From positions 1 to 21,313 of the forward strand of contig NZ_LWLG01000023.1 of NCBI RefSeq assembly GCF_001652585.1: a stretch of 21,313 nt of DNA. The letters run 5' to 3'. Below the pieces are notes generated by a model. It saw nothing but the letters and a program-made list of their open reading frames with translations, made no database searches and was not told the DNA's origin. This stretch comes from Thermosulfurimonas dismutans (lineage in GTDB: Bacteria > Desulfobacterota > Thermodesulfobacteria > Thermodesulfobacteriales > Thermodesulfobacteriaceae). This document shows positions 1 through 17,560 of this stretch, piece after piece (the first letter of the stretch is position 1; each line of letters starts with the position of its first letter). Position numbers and translations under genes: made by a program.

Positions 1-374
1 GTCTCAAGGTCATGGAAAAACTTGTAGAGCTTGGATTAAAACCGGCCATAAAAGTAAAAGAAACCTTCAGGCAGAAGGTAAAACATCCTCTGCGGAAAGA
101 TTCCAGAATTTTCTGGGAGAAATGGGGCCGAAATAGATATCTGATTGAAAGTTTGTTTGGTACGGTAAAACTGAAAATAGGCTCGCATTTTAGGGTAAGA
201 AAGGAAGAAATAGCCCAGAAGAGAGGACTGGCCGCTTTTGTGCTCTATAATATGTACCTCCTGGCTACCCTCCTCTATATCTCGTTGCTCCTTAAAAACT
301 ATTTTCGAACACTCTCATACAATGGCTTGACAGGTACAAGAAATATGATATCTATTTATTATAAATTTGAATAA
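1..374 (+). mobile_element. C-terminal part of an IS4/IS5-type DDE transposase gene, truncated by the window edge
   Basis: The frame is open from nt 3 to the stop at 372-374, so the gene starts outside the window. The peptide ...WGRNRYLIESLFGTVKLK... fits the R-x3-E-x6-K signature around the last catalytic Glu of IS4/IS5-type DDE transposases. IS termini cannot be defined because the left end is not in the window. Confidence 0.6.
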
Positions 375-417
375 TTCTAAACTAAACTCTTATGTAAATT
401 TTTGGGGGGCGCGAAAA

Positions 418-990
418 ATGAAAAATCAGAAAGTAGGGTTTTTAGGGGTAGTTTTGTTAATGCTGTTTGTGCTAACGGCCGGCCATGTTTGGGCATCTAC
501 TTTAATCTCTTTAATCTCTCCTTTTTATGTCCAGTTCATCGATGGTGATGATGAAGATTCGGTTGTGAGCTTTAATGCTCATTTCGTCAATACGGACAAC
601 AATACGACATACTGGGTGGGAATAGGGTCTCTGGATCATAAGTGGAAATCGGATGGTATTGAGGTCGGGCCTAACTCAGACCTGCTAAAATATAATCTTA
701 CACTTGACCCCCCGGGTACCTACGATGTCTATGTGGCCTGGGATACGGGAACCGATGGTAAACCGGATAAGTATATTTGGACTTCCGAGGCCGGGGTTGC
801 TAGTGCGTCCACTAGTGGATCAACTCTTAGTATTATCTGGGACGACCCAATACACTTTTCGAGTTTCGAATATACTTTTAACGGTGATGGTTTTAACGTT
901 ATTTCGGCGGTTCCTCTCCCCGCGGCGGTATGGCTCTTCGGTTCGGGGATTTTGGGCGCGGGCTTGCTAAGAAGGAAACTGCTTGCATGA
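418..990 (+). CDS. Secreted protein with a C-terminal VPLPA/PEP-CTERM (exosortase-type) sorting signal
   Basis: The tracked ORF is 367..990. The ATG at 418 is preferred because a G-run (404-409) lies 8 nt upstream and it avoids overlap with the transposase stop. The N-terminus MKNQKVGFLGVVLLMLFVLTAGHVWA looks like a signal peptide. The C-terminus VPLPAAVWLFGSGILGAGLLRRK is a motif plus TM helix plus basic tail, the classic PEP-CTERM architecture in its VPLPA variant. Confidence 0.75.
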   Translation: MKNQKVGFLGVVLLMLFVLTAGHVWASTLISLISPFYVQFIDGDDEDSVVSFNAHFVNTDNNTTYWVGIGSLDHKWKSDGIEVGPNSDLLKYNLTLDPPGTYDVYVAWDTGTDGKPDKYIWTSEAGVASASTSGSTLSIIWDDPIHFSSFEYTFNGDGFNVISAVPLPAAVWLFGSGILGAGLLRRKLLA

Positions 991-1002
991 TTAAGATTTT
1001 TT

Positions 1003-1040
1003 AAAGCGCTGCGCAGGATCTGTGCCAGCGCTTTGTTTTT
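1003..1040 (+). terminator. Rho-independent terminator after the PEP-CTERM gene
   Basis: The stem AAAGCGCTG (1003-1011) pairs perfectly with CAGCGCTTT (1026-1034). It has a 14-nt loop and is followed by GTTTTT (1035-1040), 13 nt after the stop codon. Confidence 0.6.
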
Positions 1041-1130
1041 GAGGCTTCCCCGTCCAGTTCTTATCAGCTATACTTTTCTCACTTACCTAGCTCGCGATCC
1101 CATTAACATAGGAGGGAATACAAGGGGGGC

Positions 1131-1739
1131 ATGGATTCGGTAGTCAAAGATCCGAATGTGTTTTGGCACCAGGGTTATGTAACCCGAGCAGATAGAAATG
1201 CCCGTTACGGGCACAAAAGCGGCCTTGTTTGGTTTACAGGGCTTCCTTCCTCGGGTAAGTCTTCCATCGCCCACGGGGTGGAGAAGGTCCTTTTTGAGCG
1301 GGGGGTTAAGTGCTACGTTCTTGATGGGGACAACATCAGGCACGGTCTAAATGCCGATCTGCGTTTCAGTCTTGAGGATCGCCGGGAAAACATCCGTAGG
1401 GTGGTCGAGGTGGCAAAACTCATGACTGATGCCGGGTTGATAGTCTTGGCGGCCTTCGTATCCCCTTATCGGGAGGATAGGCAGTATGTGCGTCGTCGTT
1501 TCGAAGGCGACAATTTTATCGAAATTTACGTAAAATGCTCTCCGGAGGAATGCGAACGCCGGGATCCTAAGGGCAATTACAGAAAGGCCCGGGCCGGCCT
1601 CATCAAGGGCTATACCGGCGTAGATGCCCCTTATGAGGAACCGGAACACCCTGACTTAGTGCTCGACACCGAGAAGGTGAACCTTGAACTGGCCATCTCG
1701 GAGGTTATCCAGTACCTTGAAAAATTGGGTTGGATTTAG
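1131..1739 (+). CDS. cysC: Adenylylsulfate (APS) kinase, makes PAPS
   Basis: Shows the canonical CysC pattern: P-loop FTGLPSSGKSSIA, then YVLDGDNIRHGLNADLRFSLEDRRENIRRVVEVAKLMTDAGLIVLAAFVSPYREDR. The length of 202 aa is typical, and a purine-rich SD (AAGGGGGG) lies just upstream. Confidence 0.93.
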   Translation: MDSVVKDPNVFWHQGYVTRADRNARYGHKSGLVWFTGLPSSGKSSIAHGVEKVLFERGVKCYVLDGDNIRHGLNADLRFSLEDRRENIRRVVEVAKLMTDAGLIVLAAFVSPYREDRQYVRRRFEGDNFIEIYVKCSPEECERRDPKGNYRKARAGLIKGYTGVDAPYEEPEHPDLVLDTEKVNLELAISEVIQYLEKLGWI

Positions 1740-1754
1740 TCTTTTTTCCTGTTT

Positions 1755-1958
1755 CTATTTTTTCTTCTGCTCTGGCGCGCATGGGACTTCCGGGAGGAAT
1801 TCACGGATAGGGATTTCCACATGACCTTCGGCCATTTCGCTATAACTAAATTTCATCTCTTTTCTCGCGAACGATCTCATAGACATTGAGGGCCTTATTC
1901 GATTTCCTTTTTCATTTAAATCTAGTTTTCGGAAATAACTTCCAGAGACCGGGCGCAC
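1755..1958 (-). CDS. Hypothetical small ORF (67 aa, GTG start), convergent with cysC
   Basis: Supported only by an open frame, with no recognisable motif. It overlaps a second 56-aa minus-strand ORF (1912..2082, ATG preceded by AAAAGGA) in another frame. Coding status is doubtful. Confidence 0.2.
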   Translation of the reverse strand: MRPVSGSYFRKLDLNEKGNRIRPSMSMRSFARKEMKFSYSEMAEGHVEIPIREFLPEVPCAPEQKKK

Positions 1959-1984
1959 GTCTTTTTAATCGTTTGAAGCCAGAC

Positions 1985-2012
1985 TTGTCATTTTGAAGTA
2001 CTTTGATATATT
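1985..2012 (+). promoter_or_regulatory. Candidate sigma70-like promoter for the manC-led array
   Basis: TTGTCA (1985-1990), a 16-nt spacer, then TATATT (2007-2012), in the AT-rich gap upstream of manC (start 2190). This is a pattern match only. Confidence 0.25.
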
Positions 2013-2189
2013 GCTCTTTCGAGCTTTTGGCAATGCGACTTTTTATAGGCTGAGGGTAGAGATAATACTTTATTTTATTCATTTTATTCCTTTTGTTAGT
2101 GCGTTAGTTAGGATCTTAGTGGATTCATGTTGGTGAAAGGATTTTTATCTCTAGGTTAGAAGGTATCCAAGTATGTTAGGGTATTACAT

Positions 2190-3587
2190 ATGAAAGCGGT
2201 AATATTGGTAGGGGGAAGCGGGACAAGGCTTTGGCCCTTTTCTCGAGAGAAGTTACCCAAACAGTTTTTGCGTCTCTTAGGCGATGAAAGTTTTTTTCAA
2301 AAAACAATAAAACGTCTTTTACAGAACTTATCTCCTGAAGATCTCATTTTTTCAAGTAATCGCGAGCATATTTTTTTGCTTAAAGATCAATTAAAGGAAC
2401 TCCATTTAGATCCGGAATCCTTCAATTTTGTTCTTGAGCCGGTATCGCGGAATACCGCTCCTGCTATTGCCTTGGCAGTAAGATTTGCGGAAGAAAACCT
2501 CGGGATTTCTGAGGATGAAGCAATATTTGTGGCCCCTTCCGATCACTTGATTGAGCCTGAAGAGACTTTCGGAGAGTACCTGGAGAAAGCTGAAGCATTA
2601 GCCCGCGAGGGTTATATAGTCACCTTCGGGATAAAACCTTATCGGCCTGAAACCGGTTATGGATATATAGAAGCCGGAGAAAACCTGCCGCGCCTTGGGT
2701 TTCGGGTAAAAAGATTTGTGGAGAAGCCAGACCTTGATCAGGCCAGGACTTATATAGCTTCGGGGAACTTTTTCTGGAACTCAGGCATGTTTGCTTTCAC
2801 TCCCGCCACCTTTTGGAGCGAATTTAAGACGCACGCCCCTGAAATTTATAACGCGGTTTACGGTCAGATAGTGGAAAGCATCTTGGAGCGGTTCGATAAG
2901 CTTCCGGATATCTCTATAGACTATGCGGTAATGGAAAAGACGGATTGGGCGGCGGTTTTGCCTCTAGAACTACGGTGGTCGGACGTAGGCTCTTGGGAAG
3001 CGGTTTACGAGGTAAACCCTAAAGGGGAAAACGAGAATGTGATTCTGGGTAAAGCTTTGCTTATCGACACTAAAAACAGTCTGGTTGTAGGAAATGAACG
3101 TCTGGTTTCAGTAGTAGGTCTTTCAGATGTGATGGTTGTTGAGACCGGGGATGCAGTTTTGGTGGCCCGAAAAGGGGAGGGGCAGAAGGTAAGGGAGATA
3201 GTTGAGCGCCTGAAAGCGGACGATATGGTGGCTACTCTAACACGAGTTCATCTTACAGAACATCGTCCCTGGGGGAGTTTCACCGAGCTTGAAAGGGGAG
3301 AGCGTTATCGTATCAAGCGTATAACTGTCTTGCCGGGGGAAAGCCTGAGCCTCCAGATGCACCACCATCGAAGCGAACACTGGATAGTGGTAAAGGGTAC
3401 GGCCAAAGTAACTATCGGAGATAAAACCGTATACGTACATGAAAATGAAAGCATTTATGTTCCCAAAACTACCCCCCACAGATTGGAAAATCCGGGCAAG
3501 ATTCCCCTTGAGATCATAGAGGTTCAAGTGGGGGAGTATGTGGAAGAGGACGATATCGTGAGGTTTGAGGATCGGTATAAAAGGTAA
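2190..3587 (+). CDS. manC: Bifunctional mannose-1-phosphate guanylyltransferase / mannose-6-phosphate isomerase (type II PMI)
   Basis: The N-terminal NTP-transferase signature is MKAVILVGGSGTRLWPFSREKLPKQF. The C-terminal cupin region reads RPWGSF...LSLQMHHHRSEHWIVVKGTAKV...YVPKTTPHRLENPG...IIEVQVGEYVEEDDIVRFEDRY, typical of ManC/CpsB/RfbM. Confidence 0.93.
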   Translation: MKAVILVGGSGTRLWPFSREKLPKQFLRLLGDESFFQKTIKRLLQNLSPEDLIFSSNREHIFLLKDQLKELHLDPESFNFVLEPVSRNTAPAIALAVRFAEENLGISEDEAIFVAPSDHLIEPEETFGEYLEKAEALAREGYIVTFGIKPYRPETGYGYIEAGENLPRLGFRVKRFVEKPDLDQARTYIASGNFFWNSGMFAFTPATFWSEFKTHAPEIYNAVYGQIVESILERFDKLPDISIDYAVMEKTDWAAVLPLELRWSDVGSWEAVYEVNPKGENENVILGKALLIDTKNSLVVGNERLVSVVGLSDVMVVETGDAVLVARKGEGQKVREIVERLKADDMVATLTRVHLTEHRPWGSFTELERGERYRIKRITVLPGESLSLQMHHHRSEHWIVVKGTAKVTIGDKTVYVHENESIYVPKTTPHRLENPGKIPLEIIEVQVGEYVEEDDIVRFEDRYKR

Positions 3588-3774
3588 AGAGAGAATAAGG
3601 GATAAGAAAACCGAAAACAGAAGAGAATGGATGGGAATAGTAATGAAATAAGCATGAATTTTTCGTTAAGGGGTGCTCATTGAAGGATGGAGAGCTTTGC
3701 GTTATGTTTAATCGTACTTTAAATAAGTTCGGTTCCAAAAGTTGGGGTGGAGTAGGCGTTTTTGAGGTTGCTGA

Positions 3775-5085
3775 GTGTTAGGTGGAAGGATAAAAGAGTT
3801 TCTCAAAGACAGGGAGAAAAAACAACTTTGTGAAAACTTTATATCTCTTTCGTTGCTTCAGGGAGCGAATTATATACTTCCTTTAGTTATTTTACCGTAT
3901 TTAGTTAGGGTGTTGGGTCCAGAAAAGTTTGGTCTCATAGCTTTTGCTCGATCCTTTGTGCAGTATTTCAATATCTTAACGGATTATGGCTTTAATCTTT
4001 CTGCTACCCGAGAGATCTCGATATATCGGGAAAGCAAGGAGCGAATCTCTGAAATATTCAGTGCTGTACTGACTATTAAATTGGTTCTATTAATCTTTTC
4101 TCTTGTAATATTGACTATTATTGTTTTTGGTTTTCAAAAATTTCGAAAAGATTGGGAAATATATTACTTTAGTTTTGGAATAGTAGTGGGGCAAGTTTTA
4201 TTTCCTGTATGGTTTTTTCAGGGGATGGAAAGGATGAAGTATATTACAATTTTGAATGTTATTGCCAAATTGATTTTTGCTGTTTCTATTTTTGTTTTTG
4301 TTCGTGAAGTTTCGGATTATATTTATGTGCCGCTGATAAATTCTTTAGGTTTTATAGTTGCAGGTATATTGGCATTATGGATTGCTTTTAAGGATTTTGA
4401 TATTTACTTTAAAGTTCCTAATTTAATGGTAATAAAACGTCAAATAGAAGAGGGATGGCATATTTTTATGTCTACAGTTTCTTATAACTTATACACTAAT
4501 TCTCCTAAGTTTTTTATTGGAATATTGATAAACAATAAATCTGTTGCTTTTTTCTCACTGGCTGAAAAAGTAGTTAATATTTTAAGGCAGTTGATTAATA
4601 TTATCTTTCAAGTTTTTTATCCATATTTAGCAAGGATGTTTAAAGAAAGTTTTAAAACTTACACAAAAGAATGGTTTAGATTATTTAGAATTTCAACAGG
4701 AATAAGCATGTTATTATGTGCTTTTGTTGTTTTCATACCAAAAAGCATGTTTTTGTTTGTATTTTCGGAAAGTTTCTTGCCTTCGTTATCTATGCTAAAG
4801 CTATTGGTTTTATCTTTACCTTTGCAATGTTTTATGAATCTGTTCGGAATGCAATCTATGTTGATATTGGGATTTGTCAGAGCTTATGGATTTTCCTATG
4901 TGTTCTTTTCCATTTTATTTTTGGTTATTTTACCTATAATATTATGGTTTTCAAAAAGTGTTTTTTTATTAATAGGATTAATTTTAGTTACGGAATTTAT
5001 GATAATAATTTATAGAATTTTTTATTTATATAAAAAAGGAATTTTATATGCGTTATTTAGATACTCAGCATATAGTAGAAAATAA
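3775..5085 (+). CDS. wzx: Wzx-like polysaccharide/O-unit flippase (MOP superfamily)
   Basis: GTG start. The N-terminal pattern LLQGANYILPLVILPYLVRVLGPEKFGLIAFARSFVQYFNILTDYGFNLSATREIS is typical of RfbX/Wzx proteins. The protein is highly hydrophobic and multi-spanning across its 436 aa. Confidence 0.8.
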   Translation: MLGGRIKEFLKDREKKQLCENFISLSLLQGANYILPLVILPYLVRVLGPEKFGLIAFARSFVQYFNILTDYGFNLSATREISIYRESKERISEIFSAVLTIKLVLLIFSLVILTIIVFGFQKFRKDWEIYYFSFGIVVGQVLFPVWFFQGMERMKYITILNVIAKLIFAVSIFVFVREVSDYIYVPLINSLGFIVAGILALWIAFKDFDIYFKVPNLMVIKRQIEEGWHIFMSTVSYNLYTNSPKFFIGILINNKSVAFFSLAEKVVNILRQLINIIFQVFYPYLARMFKESFKTYTKEWFRLFRISTGISMLLCAFVVFIPKSMFLFVFSESFLPSLSMLKLLVLSLPLQCFMNLFGMQSMLILGFVRAYGFSYVFFSILFLVILPIILWFSKSVFLLIGLILVTEFMIIIYRIFYLYKKGILYALFRYSAYSRK

Positions 5086-6289
5086 TTGGGAAAAGTTAGC
5101 AATGAATAGACGTTATGAGTATTTACACTTTCGAATAAACCAATTACTTAATTCTATTGTTAATCTGAATGTTTTAGATAGGGGATCAAAAGTATTAATC
5201 AATTCCATAAGGGATAAAAGCAAACTTAAAGTTTCATTGTCAAGTGTCAATTACTTAAAGAATCTATTAAAGATACTTAATCGGATAACTGGTAAAAATT
5301 ATAGCCTTAGTTATAACATTTTGTATCTTAAAAATTACATAGAGTTTTTTCTAAAAATCCACAACATAATACTAAACTATCTTCATGAATATGTAAAAAC
5401 AAGACCATATTTAGTACAGGCTAAACAATATGACAACACATTTTATGCTTACCCTCAGCTTATAGAAGTGCGCAACTTCTATAAGAAAGTTTCGAGAATA
5501 GAAGGATTGAAAGAAGTATTTATTCAGGGAAGTCTGTCTACCCTTGACTATAACAAATTTAGTGATTTTGATACTTTTATAATCATAAGTAAAGAAGCAG
5601 AAGAAGATGTAGATCTTTTTATAGATACTATTTTTAAACTATTTAGAGCATCTCGCTATTTTTACAAGTTTGATCCTTATCAGCACCATAGATATTTTGC
5701 GTGTCTTGAGTCTGATTTATATGCGTACAACCAAGCATGTCTCCCAACGAAAGTTTTAGATTATGCTACATCCATAAAAAATTCAGAGGAATTATTCTTT
5801 CAAGTATATGACTCAAGGTTGTCACACGTTATTTTCCTCACGAATGTCTTAAACTATTTTGTAATTCATCACGAAGAAAGTTTTAAAAGAATAGCTAATC
5901 TATGGAATCTTAAATATTTTGTAGCTACAGTGTTATTTATTCCTGTTCTCTTTTTAGAGGTAATTAATATTTATGTATACAAAAGGGATTCTTTTTCGAT
6001 AATAAAACAATTTTTATCAATAGATTTACAAAATTATATTGATAGATGTAGCTACTTGCGTCAAATATGGAATTATAAACTAACAACCAAAGAAAATCTC
6101 TTTAGAAAGCTATTTTTAGATATATACTTAAATCCTATATTATATGAGTATGTAATGCAGAAATATAGTCAGAAGATTAATAGAAAAGAATTCAACTATA
6201 TATTTTCGGGAAGTATTCCTTATACTCAGTTTTTCTACGATGAAGTTAGAAAAATTTATAAGAAAGATTTTAACATAGATGTTGAATAA
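5048..6289 (+). CDS. Uncharacterised protein with a Pol-beta-type nucleotidyltransferase-fold motif
   Basis: G161-S-x10-D173-F-D175 (GSLSTLDYNKFSDFDTFIII, nt 5528-5572) matches the hG[GS]-x(9-13)-D-h-[DE]-h minimal NTase signature. The remainder is predicted to be helical and lysine/tyrosine-rich. An alternative start at ATG 5102 would avoid the 38-nt overlap with wzx. Confidence 0.5.
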   Translation: MRYLDTQHIVENNWEKLAMNRRYEYLHFRINQLLNSIVNLNVLDRGSKVLINSIRDKSKLKVSLSSVNYLKNLLKILNRITGKNYSLSYNILYLKNYIEFFLKIHNIILNYLHEYVKTRPYLVQAKQYDNTFYAYPQLIEVRNFYKKVSRIEGLKEVFIQGSLSTLDYNKFSDFDTFIIISKEAEEDVDLFIDTIFKLFRASRYFYKFDPYQHHRYFACLESDLYAYNQACLPTKVLDYATSIKNSEELFFQVYDSRLSHVIFLTNVLNYFVIHHEESFKRIANLWNLKYFVATVLFIPVLFLEVINIYVYKRDSFSIIKQFLSIDLQNYIDRCSYLRQIWNYKLTTKENLFRKLFLDIYLNPILYEYVMQKYSQKINRKEFNYIFSGSIPYTQFFYDEVRKIYKKDFNIDVE

Positions 6290-7346
6290 ACAACAGATTA
6301 TCAATGATCTAAAGAAATTAGATATGGATGACTATAGAAAGATAATAATAGAGTTTGTTGACGAGTTTAAATATCCTAAGATAACATTATATAGTTTTGG
6401 TAATTTAAAGCATCCCTCCATTTCTGATTTAGATCTTGTAATAGTGTATGATGATCGTCTGGATGATAGTTTTGTTGCAAAAATTGTAGAGAAAGCAAAA
6501 AAATTTGTTGTGTCCAATGAGGTTAAGAAATACGTTTTTACTCATGACATTTTAATCTATCCAAAGAGTATTTTTAGGAAGATAAAATTTTTGCATACTT
6601 TTCAAAACATGAAGCTACTCTGTGGTAAGGAGGTTGACATACTTGTTCCATCGGAAGAAGAGCAGAGCATAGTAGATAAAGTCCATTTTATAAACTTTAC
6701 ATATAATGCTCTTTTTTGGTTAAAAGGCATTAGATTACAAAAAAAAGTTTACTTAAGACAAACTTTACTCACTTTAAATTCTGTTAGACATAGTTTTGTT
6801 TTTTTAAAAAAAATTTATCAAGATTCAAATTTAATCAAATGGATAGATATTTTAGGAGAAGTTAGGCAAGATTATAGTCTTATTTACAAAATATCCTTTC
6901 ATGAGTTGGAAGAAATTTTTTTTGAATATTTACAAAAATTTTTAGCAAGATTTTTGAGAAAATGGATAGATTTTTCCAACTTAGATAAATTAATTAACAA
7001 AAAAATATTAGTATTACACGGAAGAAGAATGATTGCAGTTCCTAGTTTAAGCATTATACATGGAGCGTCTTATTGTAAATGTTGTCCTGAAAATAAACAA
7101 TCAATATATTGGAAGATACATCGATCCTTATATCCTATAAATAACTTTACTATTAAAGATAGAAATTATAAAGGTGTTTTGCGTCATCAGATGGAAGCTG
7201 CTATGGAATTCGAAGTGTTATATAGGAAATTCCGAATAAAACCTCTTATTCCACTTATGTGCAATTACTGTACGCCGGTGATGACTAAAAAACAAAAAAT
7301 AAGATCATTATTGAATAGCTTTGTAGTAAAAATACAGTTATTATAA
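6279..7346 (+). CDS. Uncharacterised protein with an NTase-fold-like motif and a C-terminal Cys cluster
   Basis: The motif is G41-N-x7-D50-L-D52 (FGNLKHPSISDLDLVIVYDD, nt 6399-6434), with a downstream acidic THD at residues 88-90. The C-terminal cysteines are C266-x-C268-C269 and C328-x2-C331. The gene overlaps the previous one by 11 nt, suggesting translational coupling. Confidence 0.45.
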   Translation: MLNKQQIINDLKKLDMDDYRKIIIEFVDEFKYPKITLYSFGNLKHPSISDLDLVIVYDDRLDDSFVAKIVEKAKKFVVSNEVKKYVFTHDILIYPKSIFRKIKFLHTFQNMKLLCGKEVDILVPSEEEQSIVDKVHFINFTYNALFWLKGIRLQKKVYLRQTLLTLNSVRHSFVFLKKIYQDSNLIKWIDILGEVRQDYSLIYKISFHELEEIFFEYLQKFLARFLRKWIDFSNLDKLINKKILVLHGRRMIAVPSLSIIHGASYCKCCPENKQSIYWKIHRSLYPINNFTIKDRNYKGVLRHQMEAAMEFEVLYRKFRIKPLIPLMCNYCTPVMTKKQKIRSLLNSFVVKIQLL

Positions 7347-7358
7347 GAAGGTGTTTTA

Positions 7359-8507
7359 GTGTTTAACTACATAATAGTTGGTTCAGGATTTGCAGGATCG
7401 GTAATAGCCGAAAGAATAGCAAATGTTTTAAACAAAAAAGTTTTGGTAATAGAAAAAAGAAGTCATATAGGTGGAAACTGTTATGACTATAGAAATAAAG
7501 ACGGGATAATTATTCATAAATACGGCCCTCATTTATTCCACACAAATTACAAAGAAGTTTTTGATTATCTTTCTAACTTTACAGATTGGCGAATATATTA
7601 CCATAAAGTTTTAGCTTTTATTGATGGAAAAAAGGTTCCAATTCCCTTTAATTTCAATTCTATGGATATACTATTCCCTGAAATTTTATCAAAAAAATTA
7701 CAAGAAAAACTTCTAAAAAAATATCCTTATGGTGCAAAGGTTCCGATTTTAAAGTTAAAAAAGGAAAATGATAAAGATTTAAAATTTCTGGCAGATTTTG
7801 TATATGAAAAAATTTTTAAAAATTACACAATAAAACAGTGGGGAAAGAGACCTGAAGAAATAGATTCAGAAGTTACTGCAAGAGTTCCTGTTTGTATTGG
7901 GAGGGATGATAGATACTTTGATGATAAATATCAAGCGTTACCAGAAGAAGGCTATACTAAAATCTTTGAAAGAATGCTTTCTCATCCAAACATAAAGCTC
8001 ATGTTGAATACGGATTTTAAGGAAATAATGAAAGTAGATTTAAAAGGTAAGAAAATCTACTTCTTGGGGCAAGAGTTTAAAGGAAAGGTAATATTTACGG
8101 GCATGATAGATGAATTATTTGCTTACAAATTTGGAATGTTACCTTATCGCTCTTTAGATCTTCATCTTGAAGTAATCGAAAAAGAATATTTTCAAGAAGT
8201 GGCTGTAGTGAATTATCCCAACGATTATGATTTCACAAGGATAACGGAATTTAAACACATACATCCTATCAAGACCAATAGGACCGTCATTCTTAAAGAG
8301 TACCCGAAAGATTATGATCCAGAGCGAGACATTCCCTATTATCCATTTTTCGATAAAGCAGCCCGGGAGGTCTATGCTAAATATCAGGAACTTGCCGAGA
8401 GATTTGACCATCTTATTCTTGTAGGACGATTAGCAGAATACAGGTATTATGATATGGATGATGTAATCAAAAGGAGTTTAGAAGTATTTGAAGAAAGGAT
8501 CAGATAA
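7359..8507 (+). CDS. glf: UDP-galactopyranose mutase
   Basis: GTG start. The FAD-binding N-terminus reads YIIVGSGFAGSVIAERIA...VLVIEKRSHIGGNCYD...IHKYGPHLFHTN. The C-terminus has ITEFKH...YYPF...GRLAEYRYYDMDDVI. The protein is collinear with E. coli Glf along its whole length. Confidence 0.93.
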   Translation: MFNYIIVGSGFAGSVIAERIANVLNKKVLVIEKRSHIGGNCYDYRNKDGIIIHKYGPHLFHTNYKEVFDYLSNFTDWRIYYHKVLAFIDGKKVPIPFNFNSMDILFPEILSKKLQEKLLKKYPYGAKVPILKLKKENDKDLKFLADFVYEKIFKNYTIKQWGKRPEEIDSEVTARVPVCIGRDDRYFDDKYQALPEEGYTKIFERMLSHPNIKLMLNTDFKEIMKVDLKGKKIYFLGQEFKGKVIFTGMIDELFAYKFGMLPYRSLDLHLEVIEKEYFQEVAVVNYPNDYDFTRITEFKHIHPIKTNRTVILKEYPKDYDPERDIPYYPFFDKAAREVYAKYQELAERFDHLILVGRLAEYRYYDMDDVIKRSLEVFEERIR

Positions 8508-8510
8508 AAG

Positions 8511-9473
8511 ATGAGCAGCGTAAAAGATACTGTTTGTGCGGTAGTGGTTACTTACAACCGTAAGGGTTTGCTTATTGAATGTCTAGAGGCTTTGTGCAAA
8601 CAGACCAGGCCGGTACAGGGAATTTATTTAATAGACAATGCTTCTACGGATGGTACCCCTGACTTGCTTCTGGAGAAGGGGTATATAAAAGAATTACCTC
8701 CTGAGAATTTGTTAGAGCCCTGGGAGAAAGAATTCGAGATAAAAAACTTAACTGATGAGCAGCATATAAAATTCTACTATGTTCGAATGCATGAAAATAC
8801 CGGTGGTGCTGGTGGTTTTCATGAGGGTGTAAAAAGGGCTTATGAAAAGGGATATGATTGGTTGTGGTTAATGGATGATGATGTTGAGCCCTTGCCAAAG
8901 GCGTTGGAGACTCAATTGTCATATGCAGAGATTTCTAAATGTATTCATCCGTCTAGAAAATATGTAGATGGCAATAGAGTTTTGTGGGAGGTGTATTTGG
9001 ATCCTAAAAGTTCTAAAGAGATTTTTTTGAAAGACAGATCTTTTAAAGAAAAAAAATTAAATTATTGTTTAGTAAATGTTGGATGTTTCGAAGGGATGTT
9101 GATCCATCGAGATATTGTTGCTAGGATAGGTTATCCTGATAAAAGCTTTTTTATTTCAAAAGATGATACTATTTATGGTTTTTTGGCAAGTAAATTTACG
9201 AAGAATATTTATATTAGAGATATATGTTTTATTAAAAAGGTTAAAAAATTAAATAAACTTTCCGGGAAATCTTTATATTATTTTGTCAGGAATAGGTTTA
9301 TTTTATGTTTATATTTAAAAAGAGAAGGATATTTCACTTGCAAGTCTTATTTTTGGGTTTTTTATAAGATTTTCAGAATGTTGGTGTTTAATTTTGTAAA
9401 ACTAGATTTAAAGAGTTGTTATTTTATCTTGAAAGGTTTGTCTAACGGTTTGAAATTTGTTTCAAAATCTTGA
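8511..9473 (+). CDS. GT2-family glycosyltransferase (candidate galactofuranosyltransferase by context)
   Basis: VVVTYNRKGLLIECLEALCKQT...IYLIDNASTDGT and WLWLMDDDVEP (DxD) are GT-A/GT2 hallmarks. The gene starts 3 nt after the glf stop. The acceptor and donor assignment is inferred from adjacency only. Confidence 0.8.
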   Translation: MSSVKDTVCAVVVTYNRKGLLIECLEALCKQTRPVQGIYLIDNASTDGTPDLLLEKGYIKELPPENLLEPWEKEFEIKNLTDEQHIKFYYVRMHENTGGAGGFHEGVKRAYEKGYDWLWLMDDDVEPLPKALETQLSYAEISKCIHPSRKYVDGNRVLWEVYLDPKSSKEIFLKDRSFKEKKLNYCLVNVGCFEGMLIHRDIVARIGYPDKSFFISKDDTIYGFLASKFTKNIYIRDICFIKKVKKLNKLSGKSLYYFVRNRFILCLYLKREGYFTCKSYFWVFYKIFRMLVFNFVKLDLKSCYFILKGLSNGLKFVSKS

Positions 9474-9500
9474 GTTTTTATTTTATAAAGTGCTTTAAAA

Positions 9501-10718
9501 ATGCTTTCCAAAATAGCTGTTGTAATTTCTAGTTTGATATTAATTTTATTATCTTTTTATCCGTTAGCTTTCATAAGATTTTATATTGTCATTAGGACAC
9601 TTTTTCAGCCTTTTGCGAATAAGCATTTGACATTGTTTGGGAATTTTCCTATTAATGCCCCATTGCCTTTAATTTTGTTGTTTTATTCGTATTTGGCGTG
9701 TATTTTTAGGCAAGATTTTTCTTTATTTGTTCCTAATTCTGTATATCTTTATTTGTTCCTTTTTTGGAGTCTGCTTTCTTTGATAAATTCTTTTAATTTA
9801 TACGCTTCATTTGCTTTCATTTTTAAAATCTTAGCTGTAATTTCCGTTTACTTATTAATTTATAATTCAATAGAATCCGCTGAAGATTTCAAGAAGATTC
9901 ATAAGACAGTAGTGTTTTTAGCCTTAATAACTATATTCTATGGTTTTTGTCAAATTTTTTTAAAAGAAGGACAACCATTCTATGGACCTATAGTAAGAAT
10001 TAAAAGTTTTTTTTCTAGTGCCAATGAATTTGGTATTTTTCTTTCTTTAGCAATAATTTCAAATTTAATATTAGTAGCCATAGAAGGATTTAAAAAACAA
10101 TATAAGATTTTCTTAAGCTTAATGATATTAGCCTATATTTTGGCTTTAAATCGTGGATCGTGGATAGCTATGACTACTTCTATATTTTTGTCATATTTCT
10201 TTTTTAGGGATAAAATAAGATTAAGAAGTATTGTTTTACCTATTGCTATAATTTTTTTAATGTTTTCTCCAATTATAATATTGCGATTTCTTCAATTGGA
10301 AAATCCTGCAGAAAATACCTTTGTAGGCCGTATAAATTTCTGGAAAAATATGCTATATTTAATACCGCAACATCCTCTTTTAGGCTTTGGAATTGGAACT
10401 ACTGAGTTAGTATTTCAGTCTCTAACTGGACGAAAAATATATCCTCACAATGATTTTTTAAGATTATTTTTTGAAATGGGATTCGGGAGTATTTTTTATA
10501 TCCTCTTTTTAATTAAATCTTTATTGTTTTTTATTAAAAATAAAGCTAATAACTGGAAAACAAACTTTTTGTTTATTGTATCCCTTTTTTATTGGCTAAT
10601 TATTAGCATTCCCCAAAATATTGTTAATAATGTAGTATTATTTCCTTTATTTATGACTTTAATTGCTTCAGGATTAAAATATAACTTTTTAATAAATTTT
10701 GAGGGAAAACATATATAA
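9501..10718 (+). CDS. wzy: Wzy_C/O-antigen-ligase-family polytopic membrane protein (probable polymerase)
   Basis: It has about 10-12 hydrophobic segments. LNRGSWIAMTTSIF and the periplasmic-loop motif YPHNDFLRLFFEMGFGS are characteristic of the Wzy_C / WaaL family. Polymerase and ligase cannot be told apart from sequence, and the wzy call rests on pairing with wzx. Confidence 0.7.
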   Translation: MLSKIAVVISSLILILLSFYPLAFIRFYIVIRTLFQPFANKHLTLFGNFPINAPLPLILLFYSYLACIFRQDFSLFVPNSVYLYLFLFWSLLSLINSFNLYASFAFIFKILAVISVYLLIYNSIESAEDFKKIHKTVVFLALITIFYGFCQIFLKEGQPFYGPIVRIKSFFSSANEFGIFLSLAIISNLILVAIEGFKKQYKIFLSLMILAYILALNRGSWIAMTTSIFLSYFFFRDKIRLRSIVLPIAIIFLMFSPIIILRFLQLENPAENTFVGRINFWKNMLYLIPQHPLLGFGIGTTELVFQSLTGRKIYPHNDFLRLFFEMGFGSIFYILFLIKSLLFFIKNKANNWKTNFLFIVSLFYWLIISIPQNIVNNVVLFPLFMTLIASGLKYNFLINFEGKHI

Positions 10719-10724
10719 ATTACT

Positions 10725-11828
10725 ATGATTGAATGTAAACTTTATTATTTTTATAGTCCTCATTTAATACAAATCTATGAAGGATTTTATCGTTTAGCAA
10801 AAAAGAGACTCATTAAGTTGAAAATTGAAAAAATAAAAGGCGATCCACAAAAACCTATTTTAGAAGTAATTATTGATAATAAATACAAAGTTATTTATGA
10901 TACATTAGATGGCTTTAATTGGATTGAAGCTTCTGTAGAAGAAAACCTTGAGTTTTTTAAAAAAAGATTTGTAAATGTGGATTATTACTTTAAAAGAAGT
11001 TTTTCAAAAATTTTATATAAATATGCCCCGTCTAATTGTAAGATTTATCCTTTAGGTTTGAATTTTTCTTTTGATCCATCTTATTTTGTGTTGGAATGGA
11101 AATATTTAGTTAAGAATATAGTCCAAAAAGTATGGCCAATTTTTTATAAAATTCAATCGATTTCTATTATTAAGAACAAATTTCCTAAATTAGGTTATAT
11201 TTCTGAAAAATTGCTATTAGAAAATTTTGAGTTTCCACCTATTAGTACACAAAATAAAGTGTTATTTATAACTCGATTATTTGATCCTATGAAGTTCCCT
11301 TTATGTTATAGAGAAGAAGTAGAAAAATTAAATGAAACCAGAATTTTAATAATTAGATCTTGCAAAAAAGAGCTTAAAAATATATTTACTGGTGGATTGT
11401 ATGAAGATGAATATTCTTTAAAAGTTGCTAAAAATTTAACAATATCTAGAAATATTACAAGAAGATCTAATTTTGTTAAGTTAATTAAATTACATAATAT
11501 TTGTATATCTACAACAGGATTACATAAATCTATTGGATGGAAATTTGTAGAATATGTTGCTGCATCTAGAGCTATAATTACAGAACCTCTTTTTTATCAA
11601 TTACCCGGAAATTTTAAGGTGGACAAGAATTATTTAGAATTTAGAAATATAGATGAATTATTAGAGAATATTTATACTCTTTTAAGAGATCAAGGAAAGA
11701 TCAAAGATATAATGCGAGCTAATTTTTATTATTATAATATGTATGTTAAACCCGAAAATTTAGTTTTAAATACACTATTAAAAATAAAGAATTTTTTAGG
11801 AAAAAATGATAATATTTATAGTGGGTAA
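10725..11828 (+). CDS. Putative GT-B-like glycosyltransferase (CgeB / Glyco_trans_1_2-like C-terminal half)
   Basis: The C-terminal stretch ICISTTGLHKSIGWKFVEYVAASRAIITEPL...NYLEFRNIDELLENIYTLLRD resembles the C-terminal nucleotide-sugar-binding half of CgeB-like GT-B enzymes. The N-terminal half is unrecognised. Confidence 0.4.
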   Translation: MIECKLYYFYSPHLIQIYEGFYRLAKKRLIKLKIEKIKGDPQKPILEVIIDNKYKVIYDTLDGFNWIEASVEENLEFFKKRFVNVDYYFKRSFSKILYKYAPSNCKIYPLGLNFSFDPSYFVLEWKYLVKNIVQKVWPIFYKIQSISIIKNKFPKLGYISEKLLLENFEFPPISTQNKVLFITRLFDPMKFPLCYREEVEKLNETRILIIRSCKKELKNIFTGGLYEDEYSLKVAKNLTISRNITRRSNFVKLIKLHNICISTTGLHKSIGWKFVEYVAASRAIITEPLFYQLPGNFKVDKNYLEFRNIDELLENIYTLLRDQGKIKDIMRANFYYYNMYVKPENLVLNTLLKIKNFLGKNDNIYSG

Positions 11829-12816
11829 TAGTAGAAGTGGTACTACTTTAATGGCCGAGATTTTAAATAAGCATCCTTTGATTTATTCTTTTAATGAATT
11901 ACATTTTTTTGAAATGCTATACGATCCTAATGATAACTCAATTAACGATAAAAAAATTTTGAACATGCTGACAAAATTATATTGGTCTCATAAAGGTAGT
12001 GATTGGGTTAAATGTAATATAGATGATTGTTATAATGATGCTTTGTTGTTATATAATAAACTTTGTTTTGAAAATAAAATTGAACATCCAATAGAAATAT
12101 ATAAAAATTTTTTGTATATTGAAACACAAAAAATGGGAAAACTTTTCCCTTGTGAGCAAACGCCACGTAACTTATTTTATTTAAAAGAAATTTTACAGTA
12201 CTTTTCTGATTCGAAGATTATATATATGATTCGAGATCCTAGAGCAGTATTAGCTTCACAAAAAAACAAATGGAAAATGAAATTTTTAGGACATAGTAAT
12301 ATGCCTCTGAGAGAAGCTATACGTTCTTGGATAAATTATCATCCTTATACAATAAGTAAGCTTTGGAATTCAGCTTCCAAGGCTATTAAGCCTTTTTTAT
12401 CTCATCCAAACGTTTTAGTAGTAAAATTTGAAGAATTGGTAAATGATCCTTACAGAACAATTAAAAAGACGTGTGATTTTCTGGAAGTAGAATTTTATAA
12501 TGAAATGTTGGATGTTCAGTTGGCCGGATCTTCTGTCTATAAAAAGGGTAAAAAAGGTTTCAGAAAAGAGGTAATAAGTGCTTGGAAAAATAAAGGATTA
12601 AATAAAACTGAAATATATATATGCCAAGAAGTTAATAAAAAAGAGATGGAATTCTGGGGATATGATTTTGAAAAAGTTAGTCCAAACTATTTATTTTTTG
12701 TTTATTATTTGATAACTTTTCCTATTAAAACATCTATGGCATTAATCTTTAATTTAAGAAGGTCAAAAAATATTTTTAATGCAATGAAAAGGCGCTTAGT
12801 AAGTTTAGAGAATTAA
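11806..12816 (+). CDS. PAPS-dependent sulfotransferase
   Basis: IIFIVGNSRSGTTLMAEILNKHP corresponds to the 5'-phosphosulfate-binding loop. IIYMIRDPRAVLAS corresponds to the 3'-phosphate-binding motif of the sulfotransferase fold. The gene overlaps the previous one by 23 nt. Confidence 0.8.
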   Translation: MIIFIVGNSRSGTTLMAEILNKHPLIYSFNELHFFEMLYDPNDNSINDKKILNMLTKLYWSHKGSDWVKCNIDDCYNDALLLYNKLCFENKIEHPIEIYKNFLYIETQKMGKLFPCEQTPRNLFYLKEILQYFSDSKIIYMIRDPRAVLASQKNKWKMKFLGHSNMPLREAIRSWINYHPYTISKLWNSASKAIKPFLSHPNVLVVKFEELVNDPYRTIKKTCDFLEVEFYNEMLDVQLAGSSVYKKGKKGFRKEVISAWKNKGLNKTEIYICQEVNKKEMEFWGYDFEKVSPNYLFFVYYLITFPIKTSMALIFNLRRSKNIFNAMKRRLVSLEN

Positions 12817-12819
12817 ATA

Positions 12820-14025
12820 ATGGAAATTCTTATAGCAAACAAATTTTTTTATCTTAAAGGCGGTTCAGAACGAGTTCTTTTTCAAGAAAGAGAGTTCTTG
12901 TTGAATAATAAGATTAAAGTAATAGATTTTTCTATGAAAGATTCCAGAAATTTTTCTTCTGAATATTCATCTTATTTTGTCTCCTATATTGACTATTACA
13001 CCACAAATAGATTTCTTATTAAATTAAAAAACGCTTTCAAATTTATTCATTCTCCAGAGGCGGTTCGAAAAATTAAATTTTTAATTCAAAAGGAAAAGCC
13101 GGATATTGCCCATCTGCATAACATTTACCACCAGTTGACACCTTCCATCATTCATCCTCTCAAGGAACAAGGGGTGAAAGTGATTCTAACCCTGCACGAC
13201 GGGAAGCTCATCTGCCCTACCTACCTTATGCTTGACCGGAAAATAAAGCTCTGCCTTGAGTGCCAGGGAAAGTATTTTTACAAACCGTTTCTCAAAAACT
13301 GTGCTGGCTCACGCTTCAAGGGGCTTCTTTTGATGGTGGAAGCTTACTGGCATAAGTTCTTTAAATCCTATGACAAGGTGGACCTTTTTATTGCTCCCAG
13401 TCGGTTTTTGGCAGAAGTGGTCTCGCAACGGATTCCGCGGGAGAAAATCGTAGTTCTTCGCAACGGGATAGACCTTAACGAATACCGGCCTACCTATGAG
13501 GATGGTGGATACGCCCTTTACTTCGGAAGGCTTTCCCGGGAGAAAGGCGTGGAGACCCTACTTGAGGCTCACCAGGAAGTGGCCAAAGAGATCCCCCTCA
13601 AAATAGTTGGGACCGGGCCGATGGAAGCCGAGCTTAAGGCGAAATATCCGGAGGCGGAGTTTTTGGGTTATCGGACAGGGGAGGAGCTCAAGTCGCTTGT
13701 GGCCCGGGCTTCCTTTGTGGTGGTGCCCTCGGAATGTTACGAAAACTGTCCTATGACTGTGCTTGAGGCCATGGCATTGGGGAAACCCATTATTGCAAGC
13801 CGCATCGGGGGGCTTCCGGAGCTCGTGGAGGAGGGTAAAACGGGGCTTCTTTTCGAGATGGGGAATGTGGAGGAATTAAAAGAAAAGATGCTTTTTCTGT
13901 GGAAGAACAAGGATCTTCGGCGGGAGATGGGGCGAGCTGCGCGGCAAAAGGCGGAGCGGGAATTTTCCCTCGAGAAACACTGCGAGGAACTCCTGCGAAT
14001 ATACCGAAGGCTTCTTGAGAGTTAG
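12820..14025 (+). CDS. GT4-family (GT-B, retaining) glycosyltransferase
   Basis: GRLSREKGVETLLEA...IVGTGPMEAEL...VVVPSECYENCPMTVLEAMALGKPIIASRIGGLPELVEEGKTGLLF includes the E-x7-E motif. The nucleotide composition switches from AT-rich to GC-rich at about nt 13090, inside the ORF. Confidence 0.9.
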   Translation: MEILIANKFFYLKGGSERVLFQEREFLLNNKIKVIDFSMKDSRNFSSEYSSYFVSYIDYYTTNRFLIKLKNAFKFIHSPEAVRKIKFLIQKEKPDIAHLHNIYHQLTPSIIHPLKEQGVKVILTLHDGKLICPTYLMLDRKIKLCLECQGKYFYKPFLKNCAGSRFKGLLLMVEAYWHKFFKSYDKVDLFIAPSRFLAEVVSQRIPREKIVVLRNGIDLNEYRPTYEDGGYALYFGRLSREKGVETLLEAHQEVAKEIPLKIVGTGPMEAELKAKYPEAEFLGYRTGEELKSLVARASFVVVPSECYENCPMTVLEAMALGKPIIASRIGGLPELVEEGKTGLLFEMGNVEELKEKMLFLWKNKDLRREMGRAARQKAEREFSLEKHCEELLRIYRRLLES

Positions 14026-14032
14026 GTGATCG

Positions 14033-16114
14033 ATGAGAATTTTTTGGCTCCTTGTTTTGCTGTGCTTTTTTTCGGTTTCTCCCTTGCTAGCGCAACCTGC
14101 GGCTGAAATTACCATCAACTTTGAGGAAGTGGAGAGGGTTAATCCCTACATTTTCGGCCAGGGAATATTGGGTTTCGATCCCTGTAAAACGCGAAGGAAA
14201 AACCGAAAGTTTTGTGTAAACGACGGAAGATTTACCAATTTCGGAGCCGGAGTCTGGGACCCACTTTTGAGAAGGCCAAACGCGGTTCTGGTAGACCTTG
14301 CCAAAAGAATAAAAGTTTCTGTTTTGCGTTTTCCCGGAGGGTGCGGTACCCATCATTACGACTGGAAAAGGGCCATCGGGCCGGTTGAAAAGCGGCCCAT
14401 GTACAGATTCGGCATAGACGAGTTCATGGAGCTCTGTCAGGCTGTAGGAGCTAAACCTATTATTGTTTTGAGTTATTTCACCGGGACCTGCCAGAACCTA
14501 GCGGATCTGGTGGAGTATCTCAATGCTCCCCTCGGGACCAACCCCAACGGCGGGGTGGCCTGGGCGGAGGTGCGGGCCGCCAATGGGCACCCGGAGCCTT
14601 ATGGGGTGAGATGGTTTGAATTTGGGAACGAAGTGTGGCATGGGGATCATAGGAAAATTTCCGCTGTAGATCCAAGAGAATATGGAGAACGGTATCTTGA
14701 ATGTCAAAAGTTAATTAAAAACATTGATCCTAAGATTAAACTCGGAGCAGTAATGAGAAGAAGTTTATATGGATTAGGCTGGTGGAGTCGAACTGTTCTT
14801 TCTGTAATTAAAGAAAATGTCGATTTCGTAATTTTTCATATCTATCCTCCTGGTTATCGATCTGATAGAAATGAAATATCTACTAATGAACTTTTTAAAA
14901 TAGCTTTGGCTGCTCCTGAGCAAATTAGCGATTCTCTTTTTAGGATCTCTAAACAATTAAAAGAAATTACTAGGAGAGAGATTCCGATTGCTATTACCGA
15001 ATATAATGGTGGTTTTGTGCAAAATAAGCCGGTACCATACAGGCATTCTCTAGGAAATGCTCTTCTAATTGCGGATCTTTTAAGAGTATTTTTGACGGCA
15101 AATACGCCTATTTTGTGCGCTAATTATCACCATTTTTCTAATTCTTATTGGGGATTAGTTTATAATCCTCGATATTTGAAATTAAGGGATAGATATTATA
15201 TGAGACCTAATTATTATGTATTTGAATTGTATGCCAATCATTTTGGAGATATTTTATTAAAAACTAAAGTGAAATCAAAAAGTTATTTTCAATCTGGCTA
15301 TAAAAACATTTTACCTTCTATAAAAACTAAAAAAGTATCCTCTCAAAATTTAAATTTTTCAGAGATCTATAAAGAAAAAGTTTTGAGAATTGATTTTAAA
15401 TGGCTTCCTCCGTGTGTTAAAGTAAAAAAATATTCTGATTATTCGGTAATTCATTTTGATTGCGAAAAACGTAATAAGTTAGGAATATATTTTATTGATA
15501 AAATTCAAAATGTTAAACCTAATTGGTTATATTTTTGGGAAACCGAAATAAAAACAAACTTGGCAAAAGCATGGTTTTTTATAGCAATTAAAGATCAAAG
15601 GTATAGACGTATTAAACATTCAAAGATTTTATGGGGAAATACAGAGTGGATAAAAACCGGCTTTGATTTTAAGACTCCCGATAATATTAAAATTTTAAAT
15701 CTGCTGTTTTTTATCAAAGGAAAAGAAAATAAAGGAATTAAGGGAACAGTCTATATTAAAAATATGAAAATTGGGGAACTTGGCTCGGCCCCGCAATACG
15801 GGCCGACGCCATATATTTCGGCCTTGGCGAGCACCAACGAGAAGAGGAACCGAATCTACCTCATGGTGATCAACAAAAACCTGGAAGAACCTATGAGGAC
15901 GCGGATAAAAATAAATGGCTTTCCCTCTGGTCCCGTGGTTCGGGCCTGGGTGCTGAACGGGCCTTCGGTGACCGCCACCAATGAAAATCGGCAAGAAAGG
16001 GTTAAAATCCATTACCAAGAGGTGGAGGTGGATCCGGGGAAAGAATACTTTTGGTTTACCTTCGAGCCGCATTCGGTAACGGCCTTAGAGTTAACACGTA
16101 GGGAGGGAACTTGA
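14033..16114 (+). CDS. Secreted GH51-like glycoside hydrolase (alpha-L-arabinofuranosidase family) with an internal extra module
   Basis: The signal peptide is MRIFWLLVLLCFFSVSPLLA|QP. Blocks collinear with GH51 AbfA are LRFPGGCGTHHYDWKRAIGPVEKRP, FGIDEFMELCQAVGAKPIIV, DLVEYLN and WFEFGNEVW (acid/base Glu in GNE). Further blocks are VDFVIFHIY, IAITEYN (candidate nucleophile) and a C-terminal beta-sandwich ending FEPHSVTALEL. About 175 extra residues (roughly aa 410-585) lie between the barrel and the C-terminal domain. Confidence 0.75.
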   Translation: MRIFWLLVLLCFFSVSPLLAQPAAEITINFEEVERVNPYIFGQGILGFDPCKTRRKNRKFCVNDGRFTNFGAGVWDPLLRRPNAVLVDLAKRIKVSVLRFPGGCGTHHYDWKRAIGPVEKRPMYRFGIDEFMELCQAVGAKPIIVLSYFTGTCQNLADLVEYLNAPLGTNPNGGVAWAEVRAANGHPEPYGVRWFEFGNEVWHGDHRKISAVDPREYGERYLECQKLIKNIDPKIKLGAVMRRSLYGLGWWSRTVLSVIKENVDFVIFHIYPPGYRSDRNEISTNELFKIALAAPEQISDSLFRISKQLKEITRREIPIAITEYNGGFVQNKPVPYRHSLGNALLIADLLRVFLTANTPILCANYHHFSNSYWGLVYNPRYLKLRDRYYMRPNYYVFELYANHFGDILLKTKVKSKSYFQSGYKNILPSIKTKKVSSQNLNFSEIYKEKVLRIDFKWLPPCVKVKKYSDYSVIHFDCEKRNKLGIYFIDKIQNVKPNWLYFWETEIKTNLAKAWFFIAIKDQRYRRIKHSKILWGNTEWIKTGFDFKTPDNIKILNLLFFIKGKENKGIKGTVYIKNMKIGELGSAPQYGPTPYISALASTNEKRNRIYLMVINKNLEEPMRTRIKINGFPSGPVVRAWVLNGPSVTATNENRQERVKIHYQEVEVDPGKEYFWFTFEPHSVTALELTRREGT

Positions 16115-17544: not shown

Positions 17545-17560
17545 ACATAGGGGGGTGAGG

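Follow-up and report, generated by a model that had tools for sequence, protein, structure and literature searches.

Introduction

The exchange of a locus centre between flanks that are kept is well known from gene clusters for surface polysaccharides. In the rml genes of Salmonella, a gradient in guanine-plus-cytosine (GC) content goes together with recombination junctions that lie inside the flank genes (Reeves et al. 2013, PMC3715488). The cps loci of Streptococcus pneumoniae become mosaic through recombination, which also creates new serotypes; their conserved genes act as breakpoints and bear the marks of old recombinations (Mostowy et al. 2017, PMC5850285). Here we present an analysis of a Wzx/Wzy-type polysaccharide gene cluster from the thermophilic vent bacterium Thermosulfurimonas dismutans, which is a clear new example of the process well known from O-antigen and capsule loci. 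The window, by which we mean the whole stretch of DNA that was analysed, is an entire contig of 21.3 kilobases (kb; positions 1 to 21,313). It belongs to a draft genome of 50.1% GC that was assembled with Newbler from 454 reads of a pure culture into 61 contigs (PMC4911364). A preliminary description of this DNA had proposed that an AT-rich centre was exchanged between crossovers inside two intact genes, the flippase gene wzx and a family 4 glycosyltransferase gene (GT4), and had called such in-gene crossovers less usual; they are already documented for the rml genes of Salmonella (PMC3715488).

Our analysis points to a more complex history. With a probability of roughly 0.8, the AT-rich core has been pieced together by recombination from modules exchanged among related loci, with crossovers that fall partly within genes. 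The evidence consists of the base composition of the window, the changing identity of the nearest relative along the core, the different cassettes found beside the same conserved module, and the different positions at which GC rises within the GT4 gene of different lineages.

Methods

Segment borders were placed by recursive maximum-likelihood (ML) GC segmentation of the whole window, and the width of a border is given as the interval within 2 or 5 log-likelihood units (2-lnL, 5-lnL). Change-points within genes were located by likelihood on all bases, on third codon positions (GC3) or on first and second codon positions (GC12), with permutation p values. Relative loci and contigs that were fetched for the comparisons, mostly metagenomic, carry L-numbers (L023 is a Candidatus Desulfofervidus metagenome-assembled genome, MAG), and homologous proteins carry P-numbers. 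Identities are given for nucleotides (nt) or amino acids (aa). The junctions reported here were inferred from a few metagenomic relatives that are 70-99% identical to the window, and not from a population sample.

Base composition of the window

Likelihood segmentation divides the window as follows:

1-4073: segment with GC 0.444
4074-13097, no strand: low-GC core, GC 0.274
13098-14692: segment with GC 0.510
14693-15772: segment with GC 0.283
15773-21313: segment with GC 0.491

The switches that had been suggested at about 4030-4080 and about 13090 are thereby placed at 4073/4074 and 13097/13098, and the hand-counted GC of single lines on which they were based was reproduced (21.7% for 4081-4140, 25.0% for 6301-6360, 43.3% for 3901-3960 and 58.3% for 13561-13620). 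Segmentation also found a second low-GC block at 14693-15772, inside a glycoside hydrolase (GH) gene, that was missing from the preliminary description. Its impression of an imported low-GC centre agrees with both segmentation and tetranucleotide usage, by which the centre is compositionally foreign to a genome of 50.1% GC. The tetranucleotide correlation is r = 0.32-0.33 between the core and the right flank, 0.96 between the core and the low-GC block of the GH gene, and 0.84 between the two right-flank segments, while the GC3 of the flanks is 0.46-0.65. Neither the core nor the left flank is uniform: GC reaches 0.37-0.43 at about 8250-8990, where the 3′ end of glf meets the 5′ end of a family 2 glycosyltransferase gene (GT2), and stands at 0.37-0.39 over 1800-2550.

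Two simpler accounts of this pattern were considered and set aside. A native origin of the low-GC DNA, with imported flanks, was rejected because the genome as a whole has 50.1% GC. That AT-richness is a matter of membrane proteins only was rejected because soluble enzymes of the core are equally AT-rich, with a GC3 of 0.21-0.26 in glf, the sulfotransferase gene and the nucleotidyltransferase-like gene.

Mosaic structure of the core

The core and the two genes that contain its borders comprise:

3775-5085, forward strand: wzx flippase gene (PF01943, E = 8.9e-67, 225.8 bits against a cut-off of 28.2)
5048-6289, forward strand: nucleotidyltransferase-like gene (marginal PF01909 match)
6279-7346, forward strand: gene without a match to any Pfam family
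7359-8507, forward strand: glf, UDP-galactopyranose mutase (PF03275, E = 1e-75)
8511-9473, forward strand: GT2 glycosyltransferase gene, a chimera (PF00535)
9501-10718, forward strand: wzy polymerase gene (PF04932 Wzy_C, E = 2.6e-13, 50.4 bits against a cut-off of 31.7)
10725-11828, forward strand: open reading frame (ORF) of 367 aa, function unassigned, no Pfam or NCBIfam family
11806-12816, forward strand: sulfotransferase gene (PF13469, E = 1.6e-26)
12820-14025, forward strand: GT4 glycosyltransferase gene (GT4a), first gene of the right-hand module (PF00534, PF13439)

Along this stretch the nearest relative switches at least eight times across 3805-13200. Some junctions lie inside wzx and the GT2, wzy, sulfotransferase and GT4 genes, and others lie at gene boundaries. 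Those within the core are found at about 4230, 4430, 7350, 8880, 9450, 9976 and 12200, and the divergence of the segments spans 66% to 99% nt identity. From the second half of wzx onward, the nearest relatives are:

4430-7350: L107, 66-87% nt
7351-8890 (glf and GT2 codons 1-126): L108-L110, 85-96% nt
8890-9450: no relative found in a tile map against the fetched loci
9451-9975: L108, about 80% nt
9976-10425: L108, 95-99% nt
10650-11800: no relative found in the same tile map
11803-12816 (sulfotransferase): L111, 0.44-0.78 before about 12200 and 0.88-0.94 after it

The genes at 5048-6289 and 6279-7346 are colinear with L107 (66% and 63% aa identity, and 73% nt over 3831-8026), and together with the 3′ half of wzx they appear to travel as one module. 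The next piece begins with glf, which has 84-91% nt identity to L108-L110, and continues into the GT2 gene, where identity to L108 drops after 8870 from 0.86-0.88 to 0.36-0.54, with a GC12 change-point in the same gene (p = 0.003). The junction at about 8880 lies just 3′ of a DDD motif (residues 122-124), and the part beyond it is low in GC and found no relative among the fetched loci. In GT-A enzymes, a DXD-type motif closes the donor-binding half. The donor-side half of this enzyme would therefore move with glf, and the acceptor-side half would have been replaced.

A further junction divides wzy, whose product has about 10 hydrophobic segments. Identity to L108 is 0.75-0.84 for 9501-9975 and 0.95-0.98 for 9976-10425, and in the latter stretch of 450 base pairs (bp), where synonymous differences amount to 0-9%, the similarity suggests a very recent exchange. 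The following ORF, at 10725-11828, is without a homologue in the fetched loci, shows a GC3 of 0.14, which is the minimum for the window, and is absent between wzy and the sulfotransferase gene in L111. Judged by these sequence comparisons, the core is a patchwork that appears to stem from several events, some of them recent.

The preliminary description had envisaged a single import, in which the centre was replaced through one crossover at about 4050 in wzx and another at about 13090 in GT4, leaving wzx codons 1-100 and GT4 codons 91-401 native. Both positions are indeed ML GC change-points. However, one cassette with two crossovers does not accommodate the repeated changes of nearest relative, the unequal divergence of the core segments and their seven internal junctions, nor does it fit the sub-block of GC 0.37-0.43 within the core and the separate low-GC block in the GH gene, so that we consider a single import improbable. 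The reading frames of wzx (436 aa) and GT4 (401 aa) are intact and align over their full length to homologues, and genes that are chimeric yet intact and in frame are real and exceed the number claimed in the preliminary description, with wzx, GT2, wzy, the sulfotransferase gene and GT4 among them.

The right border in the GT4 gene

The ML position of the right border is 13098 (2-lnL interval 13086-13128). Within the GT4 gene, the GC3 change-point falls at codon 90 (13090), where GC3 goes from 0.21 to 0.60 (log-likelihood ratio 22.6, permutation p ≤ 0.003). The step lies where the protein is most conserved, at codons 76-120, which are 90-97% aa identical in all relatives. A search of the genome contigs for GT4 returned only distant relatives, at 60% aa identity or less.

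GT4 opens a module, composed of GT4, GH, in some loci an AAA gene, a radical-SAM (rSAM) gene and a second GT4, that is common to five loci (L023, L024, L025, L026 and L111) with different genes upstream. Directly beside GT4, the window and L111, L026, and L023 and L025 carry sulfotransferases that are unrelated or distant among these three groups (<28% aa), and L024 carries an unrelated ORF. The expectation of alternative cassettes in conserved flanks is thus borne out on the right, where the same GT4-GH-rSAM-GT4 order stands next to different upstream genes; on the left, no relative contig spans both flanks. The cassettes do not share exact breakpoints, a point that the preliminary description had raised as a check, because nucleotide homology to L023-L026 begins at 12813-12820, the GT4 start codon, and not at 13090.

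A GC step within a gene need not reflect recombination at all. The gradients could be intrinsic, produced by the amino-acid composition of domains or by selection for AT-rich codons, and the GC-richer parts of wzx, GT2 and the GH gene are in fact their conserved domains. In GT4, however, the step consists chiefly of synonymous third positions, and its place is not a fixed property of the gene. GC3 is flat, uniformly low and without a rise in the low-GC relatives L023 and L024, whereas in L025, L026 and L111 it climbs gradually from about codon 45-60 to reach the flank level near codon 180, compared with the step at codon 90 in the window. Because the positions of the rise differ among relatives, the GT4 gradient is not intrinsic, and the refuting condition that the preliminary description had named, an identical gradient in the orthologues, does not hold for this gene. 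The AT-richness of soluble core enzymes such as glf and the sulfotransferase, which equal the membrane proteins in this respect, also speaks against an intrinsic origin.

Synonymous sites tell the same story in finer grain. Counting sites where the window has G/C and the relative A/T against the reverse, we obtained 6:15 (L025) and 6:14 (L026) for codons 1-90, then 29:11 and 29:10 for codons 91-180, and balanced ratios of 33:28 and 24:31 for codons 181-400. A maximum chi-squared (max-chi2) search put the break in GT4 at codon ~118 in the window and ~193 in L025/L026 (nt p = 0.0005-0.001). From these sequence patterns we conclude that the GT4 border most probably marks a recombination crossover, and that crossovers would have hit different points of GT4 in different lineages.

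The left border in wzx

The left border is less sharp. ML places it at 4074, the 2-lnL interval being 4036-4089, but the 5-lnL interval extends back to 3772, approximately the start of wzx. Within the gene, the all-base change-point falls at 4074, where GC drops from 0.38 to 0.26 (p = 0.008), and codons 1-95 differ from the rest in GC3 (0.37 vs 0.23, Fisher p = 0.008) and in first-position GC (0.44 vs 0.30); a search for a single change-point in GC3 only did not pick codon 95-100, its best position being codon 383 (p = 0.076).

Here an intrinsic origin has more in its favour. GC12 is higher in residues 20-95 than in residues 96-200 in 79 of 82 metagenomic homologues (mean +0.058; window +0.053), so this part of the step is intrinsic, and amino-acid composition accounts for about a third of the whole. 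The third positions behave otherwise. The GC3 excess of codons 20-95 over codons 96-200 is +0.15 in the window, above all 82 homologues, and their mean contrast runs in the opposite direction (-0.043). Intrinsic composition is refuted for GT4 by the differing positions of the rise and remains a partial explanation of the wzx step; as an account of the gradients in general, without recombination, we regard it as very improbable.

The same GC3 excess could be claimed for a single import, as could the synonymous divergence from L108, which falls at 4060 from 0.36 to 0.15. Against this stand the properties of the supposedly native 5′ piece. Its GC3 of 0.37 is below the flank level of 0.46-0.65, its tetranucleotides (over 299 nt) resemble neither class clearly, with r only 0.33-0.39 against the right flank, and its best match is L108, a low-GC contig that also matches best beyond 4074 (85-87% nt over 3826-4125 and 93% over 4051-4200). 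Synonymous differences from L108 in wzx show little G/C bias (13 vs 9). The suggestion that the first ~100 codons of wzx are native is thus not supported, and the step at 4074 does not clearly separate native from imported DNA.

Clear junctions stand further into wzx, where the homology changes at about 4230 from L108 to L027/L028 and at about 4430 to L107. The nearest relatives are L108 over 3805-4250 (85-93% nt), L027/L028 over 4200-4425 (83-86%) and L107 over 4430-5085 (70-88%), and wzx thus combines at least three segments and possibly a fourth. By hydropathy, the junction at about 4430, which is codon 219, falls in a hydrophilic stretch after the sixth transmembrane segment (TM6), the TM6-TM7 loop, which we take, by analogy with MOP-type flippases, as the place where the two lobes of the protein meet. 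The two halves differ greatly in conservation. Residues 21-200 (3835-4375) share 80-95% aa identity with homologues of many taxa, including Hippea, Desulfurobacterium, Persephonella and Thermodesulfovibrio, and identity is 85-98% at residues 41-80, the most conserved stretch, with which the GC step coincides, while the C-terminal half is at 10-40% aa identity with the exceptions of P0122, P0123 and P0127. Since nucleotide identity in the conserved half is only ~0.65-0.75, its conservation reflects strong purifying selection and not recent transfer. Among the relative loci, manC, the gene that precedes wzx in the window, adjoins wzx only in the low-GC contigs L080 and L065.

Flanking genes and the downstream module

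The genes outside the core are:

1131-1739, forward strand: cysC, adenylyl-sulfate kinase, which makes 3′-phosphoadenosine 5′-phosphosulfate (PAPS), left flank (NCBIfam NF003013, 275 bits against a cut-off of 163)
2190-3587, forward strand: manC, mannose-1-phosphate guanylyltransferase/isomerase, left flank (TIGR01479, 578 bits against a cut-off of 373)
14033-16114, forward strand: GH51-like glycoside hydrolase gene (PF06964, PF22848)
16111-17520, forward strand: AAA_14/DUF4143 ATPase gene (PF13173, E = 1e-24)
17555-18538, forward strand: radical-SAM/SPASM gene (PF04055, PF13186)
18543-19664, forward strand: second GT4 gene (GT4b; PF00534)

On the left, cysC has a GC of 0.52 and a GC3 of 0.59, and manC is intermediate in composition (0.46 for both). 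On the right, 17555-19664 has a GC of 0.49-0.58 and 84-98% nt identity to L025. The low-GC block of the GH gene is in frame, 1,080 bp long and has a GC of 0.283 with about 0.5 on both sides; its borders are sharp, at 14640-14711 and 15764-15783, and it spans the least conserved portion of the hydrolase. The block has the same borders in L025, and GC is also low over stretches at the matching place in L111 and L112.

The AAA_14/DUF4143 gene lies between the GH and rSAM genes in the window, L025 and L111 and is absent from L023 and L024; it seems to have been inserted into the conserved module. A GT4/radical-SAM-SPASM/GT4 triad also stands beside a GT4a homologue in loci L001-L005, L009, L012, L013 and L019, whose MAG labels are Syntrophales, Desulfobulbaceae, Hydrogenophilales, Kofleriaceae, Muribaculaceae, Clostridia and a Promethearchaeum MAG. 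Toward the contig end, 20456-21313 repeats the AAA_14 gene in decayed form, matching 16645-17039 at 92% and 17140-17486 at 97%, with a gap of 100 bp. Directly attached to this copy is a piece that resembles the 3′ end of GT4b (19476-19593, 86%) and extends to the end of the contig. The arrangement may have been left by an earlier rearrangement, and it probably explains why the assembly breaks there.

Such paralogous sequence in the genome, together with the draft state of a 454/Newbler assembly in 61 contigs, raises the question whether two molecules or paralogous loci were joined at conserved stretches by the assembler. Such a chimera is hardly credible. The sequenced DNA was that of a pure culture, neither junction gene is truncated or out of frame, no repeat occurs at the junctions, and no second GT4a-like protein of T. 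dismutans appears among the top 120 matches. Moreover, L108 is colinear across 4074, and the independent assemblies L025, L026, L111, L112 and L113 show low-to-high GC transitions within GT4 as well as the low-GC block in the GH gene.

The genes expected of a Wzx/Wzy-type cluster include wzx, wzy, GT2, two GT4 genes, glf and manC, all present here. No initiating phosphoglycosyl transferase of the WbaP/WecA type was found by Pfam match in any window ORF scanned, and its gene may lie on another contig. Likewise, no chain-length regulator or export genes of the Wzz or Wza type were found within the window; in L024, a GNVR/Wzz gene, a Poly_export gene and an AAA_31 kinase-like gene lie directly 3′ of GT4b. 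The gene content, with glf, the sulfotransferase and the upstream cysC, suggests a product with galactofuranose and sulfate, the pairing of cysC upstream with a sulfotransferase in the core suggesting specifically a sulfated polysaccharide. Sulfotransferase genes also occur in L023, L025, L026, L108 and L111. At the left end, an ORF of 207 aa at 367-990 carries a hydrophobic segment at its N terminus and, at its C terminus, a weak PEP-CTERM motif that scores 17.3 bits against a cut-off of 20.7. The best NCBIfam match of GT4a is the glycosyltransferase family of the PEP-CTERM/XrtA system, far under its cut-off. Taken together, these two matches give a hint of a link to an exosortase system.

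Discussion

We propose that the 9-kb centre (GC 0.27) was drawn from a pool of AT-rich, serotype-like modules that would be swapped among related loci of vent-dwelling thermophiles, presumably by homologous recombination and, for this locus, in the direction of import. Crossovers would settle where donor and recipient are similar enough, that is, at gene boundaries or in the most conserved stretches within genes, and crossing over in such conserved stretches would keep the frame and yield intact chimeric proteins that are presumably functional. The GT4-GH-rSAM-GT4 module would act as the right-hand recombination anchor, and each exchange would overwrite a different length of the GT4 5′ end with donor-type AT-rich DNA. 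The step would then stand at codon 90 here and at other positions in the relatives because the overwritten lengths differ from one exchange to the next. The conserved N-terminal lobe of Wzx would be the left-hand counterpart of this anchor.

Several points weigh against assembly of the core by exchange between related loci. The left step at 4074 is small and only moderately supported, so that it is tentatively a crossover, and the drop in synonymous divergence from L108 at 4060 is not significant (p = 0.13). In GT4, the max-chi2 signal is weak once base composition is set apart (aa p~0.09-0.10; positions 1 and 2, p = 0.04-0.10), and the best match for codons 1-100 is only 79-82% nt, with no sampled relative near enough to be the donor. 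Finally, the exchange may have run between distant taxa or within one lineage group that keeps an AT-rich pool, and the observations fit either alike.

A bolder version, which we regard as doubtful, is that one AT-rich module pool extends across vent thermophile lineages and that crossovers recur at protein domain boundaries, the candidates being the Wzx TM6-TM7 loop, the GT-A site after the DXD motif and the GT-B acceptor-side domain. If this were true, the locus would be a natural domain-swap series from which one could read whether substrate specificity resides in one half or the other of a flippase or glycosyltransferase, and the 95-99% identical wzy segment shared with L108 would indicate that exchange is still ongoing.

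The locus reveals no new mechanism. It indicates that cassette-and-anchor evolution, mainly known in enteric and streptococcal pathogens, operates also in a deep-sea chemolithoautotroph from a non-pathogenic lineage of the Thermodesulfobacteriota, and it provides base-level positions for several in-frame junctions, which could guide domain-swap experiments with Wzx and glycosyltransferases.

Among described systems, the cps locus of S. pneumoniae is likewise of the Wzx/Wzy type, its centre being variable and one of its ends made up of conserved genes (Mostowy et al. 2017, PMC5850285). Unlike it, the T. dismutans locus is known from its genes alone, and its chimerism reaches into wzx, wzy and the glycosyltransferase genes. 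The rfb clusters of Salmonella enterica and Escherichia coli differ from the present locus in several ways, since here the host is a thermophilic member of the Thermodesulfobacteriota, the anchors are GT4 and the N-terminal lobe of Wzx and not rml, galF or gnd, and the junctions come from few metagenomic relatives (70-99% identity) and not from a population sample. In composition the two are alike. The centre of rfb has 28-37% GC in a genome of ~51%, with wzx, wzy and the glycosyltransferase genes lowest, and segments of unequal GC imply separate histories, the blocks nearer the specific genes being lower in GC (PMC3715488). The surface-polysaccharide loci of Enterobacterales and the K loci of Klebsiella are also reported to be modular and exchanged across genetic backgrounds (PMC7305143, PMC13043062), as the modules of the T. 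dismutans locus appear to be.

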